Source of the DNA: a virus
Lineage: Duplodnaviria > Heunggongvirae > Uroviricota > Caudoviricetes
IMG/VR virus record: IMGVR_UViG_3300049830_000314
Length of the DNA stretch: 64,000 nt
Reading direction: 5' to 3' (one strand)
Under the pieces are notes generated by a model. It did no database searches. It had not been told where the DNA came from and was given only the letters and a program-made list of their open reading frames with translations. Position 1 is the first letter of the stretch. Each line of letters opens with the position of its first letter. Position numbers and translations under genes: made by a program. Positions 25,620-28,480 of the stretch are shown piece by piece.

Positions 25620-27470
25620 ATGATTATTCAATGGCAGATAGATGTTATTAGAGATTTTAGAATTAAATTTGAGGCTATACGAGATACATATAGATATCCC
25701 GAAAGCGGCGAGATTAGAGTTAAAAAAGTAATGACCAGCGGCGGAACACAATTAATGCGAGGCATTCTTCCGCACCTGATGAAAGTGACTCATAATGGTG
25801 AAGATATACCCTGTGAACTTCATTTTTCTGCATATCTCACAAATGTGAGACCGGAGATTTTAGAGACATGTGTCGAAATTAAAGATATTGCAGAATTGTG
25901 CCAGACTATTGTTCCGCTGGTATCTGAAACGCTTGATACTGAAAAAGTTGCTTGGTGGGAAGAATTGCCACTTCAGCTTACTGCATATATTCAGCTTCTA
26001 TATCAAATTCCTGATTTCATGACACCTCAAACGCATCCACATGAGAAATGGGAAATGCGAAACCCGGTTGTAAATAACGAACAGATTGTATGGGAGGAAG
26101 ATGGATTTCGAACTAATATTGCCAGTGAACCCGACCAAGAATATTTTGATTACATTAGCTTCCGTCTTCAGGCATACATTTACAGAGTGCTGAGCAAAAG
26201 ACAGCAGAATGTTGAAAAAGCATTCGAAATCATCAAACAATATCAAAGGGTTTATTGGCGGGGGAATGGTGAGCGAACGTATGAATATCACATCTTAAGA
26301 ATGCCAAGTTATATTGGTGTATCATTGAAGCATTTCCATGATATTCAAAAAGCTACCAGTTATGGAATGGAACCATTGCATTCTTTAAATTTAGCCAATG
26401 TTTTCGGAGGAAAATGGAGACAATATGCAGCTCGAAAAGCACAAAATCCAATTGTGAAACGCATTATTAGCAACCCCGAATTGAGTGAAAATATTTATGA
26501 TTTCACCATAGACGGCTGTGATGAGATTAAGAAAGCGATTTATCAGGATTTAGCTAATAAGGGTGGATTTAAAAAGTTAATTGAACTTGTGCTTGCAGTT
26601 GGAATGGCAATTCATGACGCTGCCGTGTGTATTCCAAAAATGTCACCAAGAAGAGTAAATGGACTTGAAGAATACATGTTAACGTATGATTTTGTCAAAT
26701 ATGCTCCGTACACAAGACTTGTCGCAATGAGTTGGAATGCGCTCACGGAAGAAGAAAGAAAATTTCCACCAGAAGAAGCCGCAACAAGTATTATGCAAAG
26801 AAGTCAAGCGCTGATGACTAATTTTAGCAATTACTCAGAAGAGTTTAAAAAAGAAATGCAATGGTTGATTCCCTGTGTTGCAAATGAAGCGCATATGGAT
26901 GAATCCGCTTTGGGACTCTTTGCTACTGAAGCGGAGCGCGTTTACAAATTGTATACTGATAGCCAGCTCATACCAATGCCACAATGGGCAACGGGCGAAG
27001 CAGAATGCGACGGATATACTGCGCGATTTCTGCCTCGTAATGACCCTCGTGGCTTATTTATTGGGCACTACACTTCATGTTGCCAACACATCGGCGGGGG
27101 AATCGCTGAAAAATGTGCCATCCACGCGCAACAATCTCCGTATGCTGCAAACCTTGTTATTGAAAACCCAAGAGGCGAAATATTTGCTTGTTCATGGGTG
27201 TGGGAAGGCAGCGACGGTAGAATCTGTTTCGACAACGTAGAGGCAAAAGTTAAGAAACTCGCAGTTGTTAAACAGCTCATTGAGCAAATAGCTACACAAA
27301 TAGACATGCCGTTTATTACTACTGGAACATCGTACACTGATATTGATGTTTCGGAATACGAAACACTAGAAGATGAAGATATCCACTTGCCTGTTGATTA
27401 TCCAGAAGACGGATATTCAGACGCAAAAAAGCAAGTTGTCTTAAAAAGACAACTTGCTTGTGTCGCTTAG
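25620..27470 (+). CDS. large hypothetical protein (start probably MIIQWQ at 25620; the track ORF begins at 25458)
   Basis: Plus-strand ORF divergent from 23089-25185. A TTGTCAAC...TTTTGAGGAAAAAT box lies upstream at 25370-25400. Confidence 0.5.
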
Positions 27471-27751
27471 CGATATCGGAAAGTGATTCTACCCCTGGTG
27501 AGGTCATAAGGGCTAAGTTCTACTTTCACCTTGTCACCAGGCAAGATTCGAATATAGTGTGTGCGAATCTTGCCGCTGATGTGAGCGATAATGTTATTCT
27601 CCATTTCGTTGAGCTTAACATTAAAACGACCATTTGATAGATTTTCCAAAACGACGCCATCTAATTCGATGCCTTCTTCTTTGGTTGTTGATTGTTTCTT
27701 CGGAGCTGGTCGATTGTTCCGATTATTGCGATTATTATTAGGTTTTCCCAC
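27467..27751 (-). CDS. infA: translation initiation factor IF-1 with an Asn/Arg-rich N-terminal extension
   Basis: [63 protein letters not shown] aligns along its length with bacterial IF-1 (S1-like OB fold). Confidence 0.85.
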
Positions 27752-27760
27752 TGTTCTCTA

Positions 27761-28480
27761 TTATACACTTTGCCGTGACTTAACAATATTCCTTATCAAA
27801 TCCCTTTTATTCCAATTATCATCACTCTTAAACCATGGGCTAACCATTTTGTATCGAGCGGTATTATCAGAATTTTTAAGGAAGATTCCCTCACGTGGCG
27901 AAGACGTGGAAAATTCACTATCTCCGTCTCGCAAGTCTATAAGGTCTTGTGTAGTGTATTCGCCTAAAGAAATCAACGGAGCGACGTTAAAACCAACCTC
28001 TAAAAGCATTTCACGAGTCAATCCTGGTGGAAGAAACTTCTTTTCATCAGAATTGTAGATATCGTAGGCGATGAACAGACTTGGAAGCTTGTCATATGCG
28101 ACAACGTGTCGTGCATATAGCCACTCGCCATAAACACTTGCTGTAAATCCAAGTTTATGATTCAATCGTGTCCAAAGCTCTCGATTGTCATACATCCAAG
28201 TCCAAACTCTTTGATATTGAATTTGTGCTGGAGTTTTACGTCTGTCATACCCTTTTCTCAAAACATGAGAGCGATTGCGAACAATAGGCTCTCCGCCAGA
28301 AGGAATGGCAATACCCAAATTAGTTCCGTCGATTTTTTCCTCGACATAGATATTGCCAGACAGAAGAACAGACATGTCAAAGTCCGAGGCGATAATATCA
28401 TCATGCTCCGCGTTTGGCTGCACCGGAAGGTGAGCTGTGCGCGGGAACTCTGGTAAAATTAGTTTCTCGGATTCGTACAT
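27761..28480 (-). CDS. RNA ligase-like nucleotidyltransferase domain protein (KxDG motif, Rnl2 N-domain-like)
   Basis: EEKIDGTNLGIAI matches nucleotidyltransferase motif I (compare T4 Rnl2 EKIHGTN). 239 aa. Confidence 0.5.
   Translation of the reverse strand: MYESEKLILPEFPRTAHLPVQPNAEHDDIIASDFDMSVLLSGNIYVEEKIDGTNLGIAIPSGGEPIVRNRSHVLRKGYDRRKTPAQIQYQRVWTWMYDNRELWTRLNHKLGFTASVYGEWLYARHVVAYDKLPSLFIAYDIYNSDEKKFLPPGLTREMLLEVGFNVAPLISLGEYTTQDLIDLRDGDSEFSTSSPREGIFLKNSDNTARYKMVSPWFKSDDNWNKRDLIRNIVKSRQSV

Follow-up and report, generated by a model that had tools for sequence, protein, structure and literature searches.

A probable huge-phage translation and tRNA island with a tailed initiation factor IF-1 beside a compact RNA-ligase-type protein

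Why would a phage carry a gene for translation initiation factor 1 (IF-1), and does the RNA-ligase-like gene next to it belong to the same machinery? Both genes lie on a 64,000-nucleotide stretch of the IMG/VR record IMGVR_UViG_3300049830_000314 (Caudoviricetes), referred to here as the window. A preliminary description of the window had combined them with a second ligase-like protein, a Thg1-like enzyme and a SpoU methyltransferase into one coherent tRNA and RNA repair toolkit of unusual composition. Our analysis points to another answer, which as a whole we regard as probable: the window would be part of an island of translation and tRNA genes in a huge uncultured phage, with an IF-1 that acts on the host ribosome, a minimal ATP-dependent RNA ligase, and further genes that are independent of one another. 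The two central features are the following.

27467–27751, minus strand: infA homologue (IF-1), 94 residues, GTG start; tail, residues 1 to ~27 (27671–27751); S1/OB fold, residues 28–92
27761–28480, minus strand: stand-alone ATP-dependent RNA-ligase-type nucleotidyltransferase, 239 residues (PF09414, E 4.3e-22)

The ligase had been placed immediately downstream of IF-1; as both genes are on the minus strand, it is in fact upstream in the direction of transcription.

The product of 27467–27751 is a full-length bacterial-type IF-1, as first described. It scores 107 bits against the infA equivalog model TIGR00008 (cut-off 61.15), covering model positions 1–69 of 69, and its residues 28–92 match the whole of PF01176 (E 3.5e-23, model positions 1–64 of 64). 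All 25 invariant columns of a 25-sequence alignment (A1) are retained, and the core motifs HISGK, YIRI, PGD and PYDL-GRI are present. Identity to E. coli IF1 is 59%, and this conservation argues for the ancestral ribosomal binding site and function. IF-1 proteins usually comprise ~70–75 residues without an appendage; the window protein departs from this architecture and not from the core, and its clade shares a one-residue insertion and several substitutions in the β1–β3 loops. Judged from its sequence, the phage IF-1 would bind the A site of the host 30S subunit like cellular IF-1. It may thereby raise or replace the host IF-1 pool during infection, such that initiation on phage messages is sustained or favored.

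IF-1 is rare across phages at large and recurrent in very large ones. Homologues were found in 36 of 50,697 phage records, several of them resembling host fragments. Every one of the 15 Lak phages is among the 36, as are Phosso, six Bacteroides DAC/SJC phages and two huge phages known from uncultured material; the remaining records are short or dubious. The earlier statement that infA is rarely carried by phages is thus correct overall and incorrect for huge phages, in which IF1 and IF3 have been reported together with tRNA-ligation genes (Al-Shayeb et al. 2020, PMC7162821). A scan of IMG/VR with the window IF-1 returned only relatives at 42–55% identity, and the 16 closest relatives in a 5.8-billion-protein database are 59–99% identical.

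Ahead of the OB fold, the window IF-1 carries a basic tail of 23–27 residues rich in Asn, Arg and Lys, so that the HISGK anchor comes 22 residues later than in E. coli IF1. A stop codon lies three codons 5′ of the GTG and the next in-frame start codons occur only inside the OB fold; the tail must therefore be translated and is not an annotation artifact. Relatives start at the same position, with ATG. The basic N-terminal extension, put at 25 residues in the preliminary description, is accordingly genuine. Among the 16 closest relatives, 14 possess a tail of 13–32 residues with 5–10 Asn/Gln and a net charge of +4 to +10. A basic tail as such is present in 15, including one that is poor in Asn/Gln (P0016), and the remaining protein (P0015) is almost tailless. 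Tail sequence drifts fast and composition is kept: in the relative L004, the core is ~95% identical and the tail differs at many positions. Retention of this composition across the clade may be a new point. The IF-1s of LR756511, Lak-B5 and Phosso are canonical, tailless proteins of ~72 residues, and Bacteroides phage DAC19 has a 101-residue version whose tail abounds in Asn, Gln, Lys and Arg.

In the window IF-1, a short repeat encodes part of the tail.

27711–27736, minus strand: 9-nucleotide tandem repeat (AATAATCGN), 2.9 copies, 88% matches (TRF), encoding NNR NNR NNR of the tail

The repeat suggests that slippage contributes to variation in tail length. A group of cellular IF-1s, one of them from an Armatimonadota metagenome-assembled genome (MAG), carries the shorter tail MPKPRGPRKVKTTTKEE, which is similar to the terminal parts of the phage one. 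Given this likeness, the phage tail was probably inherited from the short basic tail of some cellular IF-1s and then elongated, partly by 9-nucleotide slippage. In function, it may be a disordered RNA-binding appendage. Basic N-terminal extensions have been described for phage-encoded S21 (PMC7162821). The nearest functional analogue is the basic N-terminal tail of eIF1A, a factor bound at the site that IF1 uses (PMC5037330); within the closed pre-initiation complex, this tail touches rRNA, mRNA and initiator tRNA (PMC5756025).

A possible role for such a tail is suggested by the signals that precede the genes of the window. Of 72 genes, 16 have a Shine–Dalgarno (SD)-like tetramer upstream, which at a background of 17% amounts to no enrichment. 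Hexamers resembling a −10 element lie 0–9 nucleotides before the start in 27 cases among 81 genes (~4.5 expected), with a peak at 5 nucleotides. GGTAYAAT is present in 13 copies (2.8 expected). An upstream element, TTTCCTCAA, has 17 perfect copies, of which 16 lie on the coding strand, and 61 matches when one mismatch is allowed (29 expected). Both elements combine into a composite, TTTCCTCAA-N16-TATAMT-N5-ATG, that precedes many genes, including that of p117, an orphan protein whose gene immediately precedes the ligase gene. Conservation of the composite extends to three relatives (L001, L004 and L008), where it stands in front of the p117 homologues.

28839–28869, 11777–11807, 23059–23089, 10180–10217 and 1646–1676, all minus strand: examples of the composite promoter
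28839–28869, minus strand: p117 promoter, made up of TTTCCTCAA (28861–28869), 13 nucleotides, TGTTATACT (28839–28847), 5 nucleotides and the p117 ATG
27760–27765, minus strand: TATAAT −10-like hexamer, 8 nucleotides before the IF-1 GTG and overlapping the ligase stop codon

Overlaps of 1 or 4 nucleotides are found at 12 of 77 same-strand gene junctions. Taken with the scarcity of SD motifs and the −10 element abutting the ATG, they predict leaderless first cistrons and coupled downstream cistrons. A stereotyped promoter with its −10 element ~5 nucleotides before the ATG implies leaderless mRNAs, possibly a new point. At the locus itself, the p117 promoter, whose architecture recurs in the three relatives just named, predicts a leaderless p117–ligase(–IF-1) transcript. 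The TATAAT hexamer is probably IF-1's own promoter, giving an mRNA nearly free of leader; an equivalent (T)GTATAAT lies 7–8 nucleotides before the IF-1 start in L004, L007 and L008.

These patterns open an alternative to a general-purpose factor, namely that the tailed IF-1 is specialized for the phage's own mostly leaderless or SD-less messages. From the A site, the basic tail would extend toward the P site and the mRNA channel, where it would stabilize initiator tRNA and a 5′-terminal start codon in the manner of the eIF1A N-terminal tail. Such a factor would bias initiation to phage mRNAs and would favor re-initiation by 70S ribosomes at downstream cistrons that are tightly coupled. The background level of SD motifs, the −10 hexamers near starts, the enriched GGTAYAAT and TTTCCTCAA elements, the recurrent composite conserved before p117 homologues and the overlapping junctions all fit this proposal, as does the occurrence of the tail in Bacteroides DAC phages but not in the IF-1s of Lak, LR756511 and Phosso. 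According to a review (PMC9031893), leaderless translation is stimulated by IF1 whatever its concentration, and 70S scanning is stimulated strongly, so that service of an extra, tailed IF-1 in a leaderless mode is a reasonable, if unproven, suggestion; the link between tail and leaderless initiation is one that we infer. The −10-like motif beside the ATG, however, could have another role, and the short basic tails of cellular IF-1s mean that the phage tail may be inherited, neutral and partly a slippage product. We therefore treat the specialized factor as a tentative and rather unlikely explanation. A bolder version, in which the whole clade expresses most genes in leaderless or SD-less coupled form and an eIF1A-like tail contacts mRNA or initiator tRNA so as to favor 5′-terminal starts, appears doubtful.

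The ligase-type neighbor had been likened to the adenylyltransferase domain of T4 Rnl2 on the basis of its KxDG motif, and the PF09414 match, the fold and the motifs all agree with that view. Motifs I (K49-x-D51-G52), III (E119), IIIa (F136/D140), IV (E197-G198...K202) and V (K211) are invariant or nearly so over 61 homologues, and the catalytic residues align to K170, D172, E227, E312 and K326 of NgrRnl. The AlphaFold2 model has a pLDDT of 95.3. In a Foldseek search of the PDB, its best 32 matches are all RNA ligases (E down to 4.8e-10), with NgrRnl (Rnl5), T4 Rnl2, TbREL1 and archaeal Rnl3 as the nearest folds (TM ~0.55). A single-sequence search of the PDB was marginal, and the identification comes from profile and fold searches. 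The family is stand-alone, with members of ~237 residues; its 117 homologues derive mostly from metagenomic contigs, some of 200–600 kb, and some members of the subfamily are labeled as phosphatase fusions. The best match in BFVD is one domain of an 859-residue Terrestrivirus protein (TM 0.76, 30% identity). On a 597-kb phage-like contig (L006, 7060–8726), a 241-residue homologue directly follows a 312-residue PF09414 ligase, as tandem paralogues.

The protein is unusually small in domain terms. It ends ~25 residues past motif V, and the C-terminal all-helical domain of Rnl2 is absent from the model. With ~43 residues before motif I, it also has no counterpart of the N-terminal OB-like domain of Rnl5, and its profile aligns to NgrRnl residues 163–335 only. 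A conserved N-terminal segment of ~40 residues, which contains the motif LPEFPRTxHLPxxPNA (PRTxHL), is packed on the nucleotidyltransferase domain in the model. We propose that the protein is a minimal ATP-dependent RNA ligase. K49 would be adenylylated, AMP would be transferred to an RNA 5′-phosphate end, and attack by the 3′-OH would seal the break. Like the second ligase and the Thg1-like polymerase introduced below, it most likely maintains RNAs (tRNAs or others) that undergo cleavage or trimming in the course of infection.

The remaining genes cited as parts of the toolkit are located as follows.

41707–42750, minus strand: second RNA ligase, Rnl1-like, 347 residues (PF09511, E 1e-3; fold; homologues)
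48788–49855, minus strand: bacterial-type Thg1-like protein (TLP), a 3′-5′ nucleotidyltransferase (PF04446, E 3.7e-29)
36189–36707, plus strand: SpoU-family RNA 2′-O-methyltransferase, 172 residues (PF00588, E 4.2e-26)

The second KxDG protein proved to be an Rnl1-like ligase, as judged by fold and homologues. Its own Pfam match is weak (PF09511, 19.3 bits against a gathering score of 28.3), and a PDB profile search gave no match. PF09511 is present in homologues at 46–56% identity, one of which bears the name "T4 RnlA family RNA ligase", and the gene of one homologue has a RlaP gene as its neighbor. Motifs I (K94-x-D96-G97), III (E162), IV (E251-G252) and V (K267-x-K269) are invariant. The AlphaFold2 model (pLDDT 89.8), with C-terminal helices at 271–346, matches MthRnl, the Trl1 ligase domain and T4 Rnl1 by Foldseek (E 4e-10 to 8e-9, TM ~0.5). 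The family assignments of both ligase-like reading frames are right; NCBIfam holds no model that matches the 239-residue ligase, the Rnl1-like ligase, p117 or the TLP.

The Thg1-like assignment is also confirmed (PF04446, 101.7 bits, cut-off 29.2; phrog_4717, E 3e-80). The TLP probably starts at the ATG at codon 7. Over residues 10–223 it matches PDB 4KGK, a "Thg1-like uncharacterized protein" that we take to be the Bacillus thuringiensis TLP, at E 4.6e-55. Matches to Thg1 structures are weaker (E 5e-12 to 4e-7), which places it with the bacterial TLP type; the phage protein differs from 4KGK by ~90 extra C-terminal residues. The SpoU protein has the domain of its family (PF00588, 92 bits, cut-off 29.7), and its gene lies on the plus strand rather than on the minus strand. 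It falls far under the cut-offs of the equivalog models RlmB, TrmH, TrmJ and TrmL, and its gene is syntenic in L001 and L004.

Two tRNA-His genes, which both encode CCA, are found 3.4 kb from the Thg1-like gene.

53305–53388, minus strand: tRNA-His(GUG) copy A, with an encoded G at −1, C73 and an unusually long variable arm; bacterial-style
53225–53298, minus strand: tRNA-His(GUG) copy B, with T (U) at −1 and A73; eukaryote-like configuration

Bacterial TLPs prefer templated addition opposite C73. A role of the TLP as the enzyme adding G−1 to the A73 copy B was considered and not adopted, the enzyme being of the bacterial TLP type.

Do these genes form one machine? The proposal that IF-1, the two ligases, the Thg1-like enzyme and SpoU act together against anticodon nucleases, like T4 Pnk/Rnl1 against PrrC, draws on two RNA ligases and a tRNA 5′-end repair polymerase being present, on divergent multi-copy tRNA clusters that could replace cleaved host tRNAs, and on the use of the ligase subfamily as a domain of the 859-residue giant-virus protein and, by label, in phosphatase fusions. 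The same role has been proposed for such genes in jumbo phages, from which Rnl1, Rnl2, Thg1 and tRNA arrays were reported together (PMC7824862). However, the genes are spread across 22 kb. From IF-1 and the ligase, SpoU is 8 kb away, the Rnl1-like ligase 14 kb and the TLP 21 kb, and all are intermixed with dozens of unrelated genes on both strands. No polynucleotide kinase/phosphatase, 2H, HD, RtcB or RlaP protein was found among window open reading frames (ORFs) of ≥100 residues at E ≤1e-4; without an end-healing enzyme, the T4 Pnk/Rnl1 logic cannot be completed from the visible genes. IF-1 has no known role in RNA repair, and SpoU lies on the opposite strand and matches no specific orthologue model.

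Linkage within the locus is also loose, as seen in its relatives:

L001-3: IF-1 identity ~70–77%; order p117–ligase–IF-1
L008: IF-1 identity ~74%; order p117–ligase–IF-1
L004: IF-1 identity 95%; ligase split by a frameshift
L007: IF-1 identity 78%; ligase replaced by an oppositely oriented LAGLIDADG ORF, with p117 and IF-1 remaining

Close relatives that retain IF-1 can thus have a frameshifted ligase or none. In LR756511, IF-1 and the ligase are 24 kb apart, and no ligase was found within 3–5 kb of IF-1 in Lak, Phosso and DAC phages or in six IMG/VR loci. The p117–ligase–IF-1 adjacency is a clade-specific gene order. Because of the dispersal, the missing end-healing enzymes, the clade-only adjacency, IF-1's own −10 element and the published composition of such sets, the toolkit is not supported as a unit, and we regard a joint defense against anticodon nucleases as unlikely. 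Under the reading we prefer, IF-1, the ligases, the TLP and SpoU would be independent auxiliary genes in one permissive region, not an operon-level repair machine, and each likely serves translation or RNA maintenance.

Several points weigh against this preferred reading. Capsid, terminase, tail or other virion genes were not found within the 64-kb window, so the phage assignment stands on homology and gene content. The absence of end-healing enzymes leaves the ligases without partners of that kind in the window. For step 2 on nicked duplexes, Rnl2 and Rnl5 depend on an accessory domain that is missing from the 239-residue ligase; this protein may rely on a partner, or its function may not be strand sealing at all. 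For IF-1, the clade-specific β1–β3 loop changes might alter contacts with the ribosome or IF3, and the protein could be an inhibitor or decoy rather than a helper.

Taken further, this last thought would make the IF-1 homologue a repurposed protein rather than an initiation factor: with its basic tail it would serve as a general chaperone of RNA, similar to cold-shock factors, or would block the A site in dominant-negative fashion and so shut down host translation. E. coli IF1 has RNA chaperone activity, the OB/S1 fold is common to cold-shock proteins, one bacterial homologue adjoins a CSD gene, and the loop changes are specific to the clade; but a score far over the equivalog cut-off and retention of every invariant IF-1 position make repurposing quite improbable.

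The phage origin of the window is supported by homology and gene content. The closest database matches of the 239-residue ligase are three curated uncultured phage genomes of 595–642 kb. A neighboring 698-residue protein belongs to phrog_33734 and also matches large phages, and PHROG families are matched by IF-1, the Thg1-like protein and the papain-family protease (phrog_16701 for the protease). A megablast search with 3.5 kb around the IF-1 locus against the phage collection gave no match, and thus no close sequenced relative there. The window contains 25 tRNA genes by ARAGORN and 20 by Rfam, ~22–25 overall, clustered by amino acid into tandem sets of 2–5 divergent copies each:

6564–6811, minus strand: tRNA-Phe, three copies
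16453–16870, minus strand: tRNA-Leu, five copies
20839–21342, minus strand: tRNA-Glu, five copies
45511–45775, minus strand: tRNA-Tyr, three copies
53225–53388, minus strand: tRNA-His, two copies
56249–58026, minus strand: tRNA-Pro, four or five copies

A GluRS/GluQRS-like gene (19958–20866) abuts the tRNA-Glu cluster. This aminoacyl-tRNA synthetase gene is a fragment, and a ValRS-like one is truncated. Also encoded are a thioredoxin, a Clp_N protein, a guanylate kinase and a kinase/PP2C pair, together with the features below; gene content of this type has been described for huge phages (PMC7162821).

10237–10896: truncated release factor 1 (RF1)-like gene
8648–9238: PurN-like formyltransferase
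34450–34916, minus strand: GOLLD RNA (Rfam RF02032; 154 bits, gathering score 150)
15347–15538, minus strand: group I intron (RF00028; 55 bits)

The formyltransferase was considered as Fmt and rejected; the family model makes it PurN-like and hence not an initiation gene. A transfer-messenger RNA called by ARAGORN at 57721–58106 (minus strand) was treated as false, as it overlaps the tRNA-Pro genes and has no Rfam tmRNA match. That the window might be cellular or plasmid DNA, with infA the host's own gene, is scarcely credible: the absence of capsid, terminase and tail genes from 64 kb and the Armatimonadota MAG origin of the nearest cellular homologues of IF-1 and the ligase would suit it, but the ligase matches best to the curated 595–642 kb phage genomes, the Thg1-like protein, the 698-residue protein, IF-1 and the peptidase match PHROGs, RF1 and the aminoacyl-tRNA synthetases are truncated, ~22–25 tRNA genes share 64 kb with a GOLLD RNA and a group I intron, and the ribosomal-protein or adk/secY context of cellular infA is missing, in contrast to the bacterial locus L009.

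Some further observations concern the host and the RNA genes. The closest cellular homologues come from Armatimonadota-type MAGs (ligase, 49% identity; IF-1, ~62–69%, with a short basic tail, P0035). On a 1.36-Mb contig of an Armatimonadetes MAG (L005), Nuc_deoxyri_tr2 and ZIP genes lie near the ligase, as in the window. These matches hint at the host phylum or at an integrated relative. A tRNA embedded in the GOLLD RNA (34776–34847) has the anticodon UCA, that of a UGA suppressor, and is labeled "SeC" by ARAGORN; together with the truncated RF1-like gene it hints at UGA read-through or recoding somewhere in this phage. A 226-residue ORF with HNH-like Cys/His motifs (15623–16303, minus strand) adjoins the group I intron, and a partial tRNA-like match (16361–16426) lies beside the tRNA-Leu cluster.

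The IF-1 locus consists of four co-oriented minus-strand genes, those of the protease, p117, the ligase and IF-1; around the ligase and IF-1 lie the following features.

28871–29653, minus strand: papain-family (C1) cysteine protease (PF00112, E 5.9e-17; phrog_16701; 88% identity in L004)
28480–28833, minus strand: p117, orphan protein of 117 residues; its stop overlaps the ligase ATG (TAATG)
27429–27459, minus strand: intrinsic-terminator-like hairpin with a 14-bp stem and T run, directly after the IF-1 stop
25458–27470, plus strand: 670-residue ORF convergent with IF-1; the IF-1 terminator hairpin lies within its 3′ end, which also overlaps the IF-1 stop

The protease probably starts at an ATG ~10 codons inside its ORF. 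Each of the five relative lineages examined has p117 immediately before the ligase slot (tblastn identity 78% in L004, ~50% in L001-3, L007 and L008). The protein has no Pfam, NCBIfam or PHROG match, and among 1.8 billion representatives only ~25 clusters are related to it; residues 30–73, its central region, recur 17 times in one 1843-residue protein (P0281). We considered p117 as the missing accessory subunit of the ligase and set the idea aside: p117 is kept in L007 despite loss of the ligase, so the link is not obligatory. In L004, too, IF-1 is followed by a similar hairpin. The 670-residue ORF is 81% identical in L004, is absent from L001-3 and L007, and has no family match.

The window thus adds to a published pattern rather than establishing a new type of system: huge phages are already known to carry RNA ligases, tRNAs and initiation factors (PMC7162821; PMC7824862). 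Its tailed IF-1 clade offers a simple, testable handle on a possible viral retuning of bacterial start-site selection. The apparently genome-wide leaderless architecture, with its well-defined promoter, contrasts with the jumbo phages phiKZ and AR9, in whose mapped transcriptomes no leaderless transcripts were found. The minimal ligase family, with ~237 residues, a PRTxHL segment and no accessory domain, could provide a compact enzyme of practical interest. If the tail does serve leaderless initiation, it would be a bacterial-world convergence on the eIF1A tail mechanism and a viral device for translation takeover.

Compared with known systems, the 239-residue ligase shares the nucleotidyltransferase fold and motifs I, III, IIIa, IV and V with T4 Rnl2 and kinetoplastid REL1 and with the Rnl5 enzymes of Naegleria and Deinococcus; it has neither the C-terminal domain of the former nor the N-terminal OB domain of the latter. 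Like T4 Pnk and Rnl1 against PrrC, and like the jumbo-phage sets (PMC7824862), the window combines Rnl1-like and Rnl2-type ligases, a Thg1-like protein and many tRNAs; unlike them, it has no Pnk, HAD, 2H, RlaP or RtcB protein, and its genes are dispersed rather than in one operon. With the huge phages of PMC7162821 (LR756511, Lak, Phosso) it shares a bacterial-type IF-1, here 49–53% identical to theirs; in both cases the phage is one of several hundred kb that also carries genes for tRNAs, aminoacyl-tRNA synthetases and release factors. Their IF-1s are tailless at ~72 residues, whereas the window clade keeps a 23–27-residue tail of conserved composition. Among the phage IF-1s compared, a comparable tail occurs only in the Bacteroides DAC/SJC phages, where the gene is annotated "hypothetical". 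The eukaryotic and archaeal orthologues of IF-1, eIF1A/aIF1A, have the same OB fold and A-site position (PMC5037330) and an unstructured basic tail of similar length, likewise rich in Lys, Arg and Asn, N-terminal to the OB fold (PMC5756025). The window protein has no C-terminal tail, and its core is clearly that of a bacterial IF-1 (TIGR00008), which argues that its tail was acquired independently of that of eIF1A.

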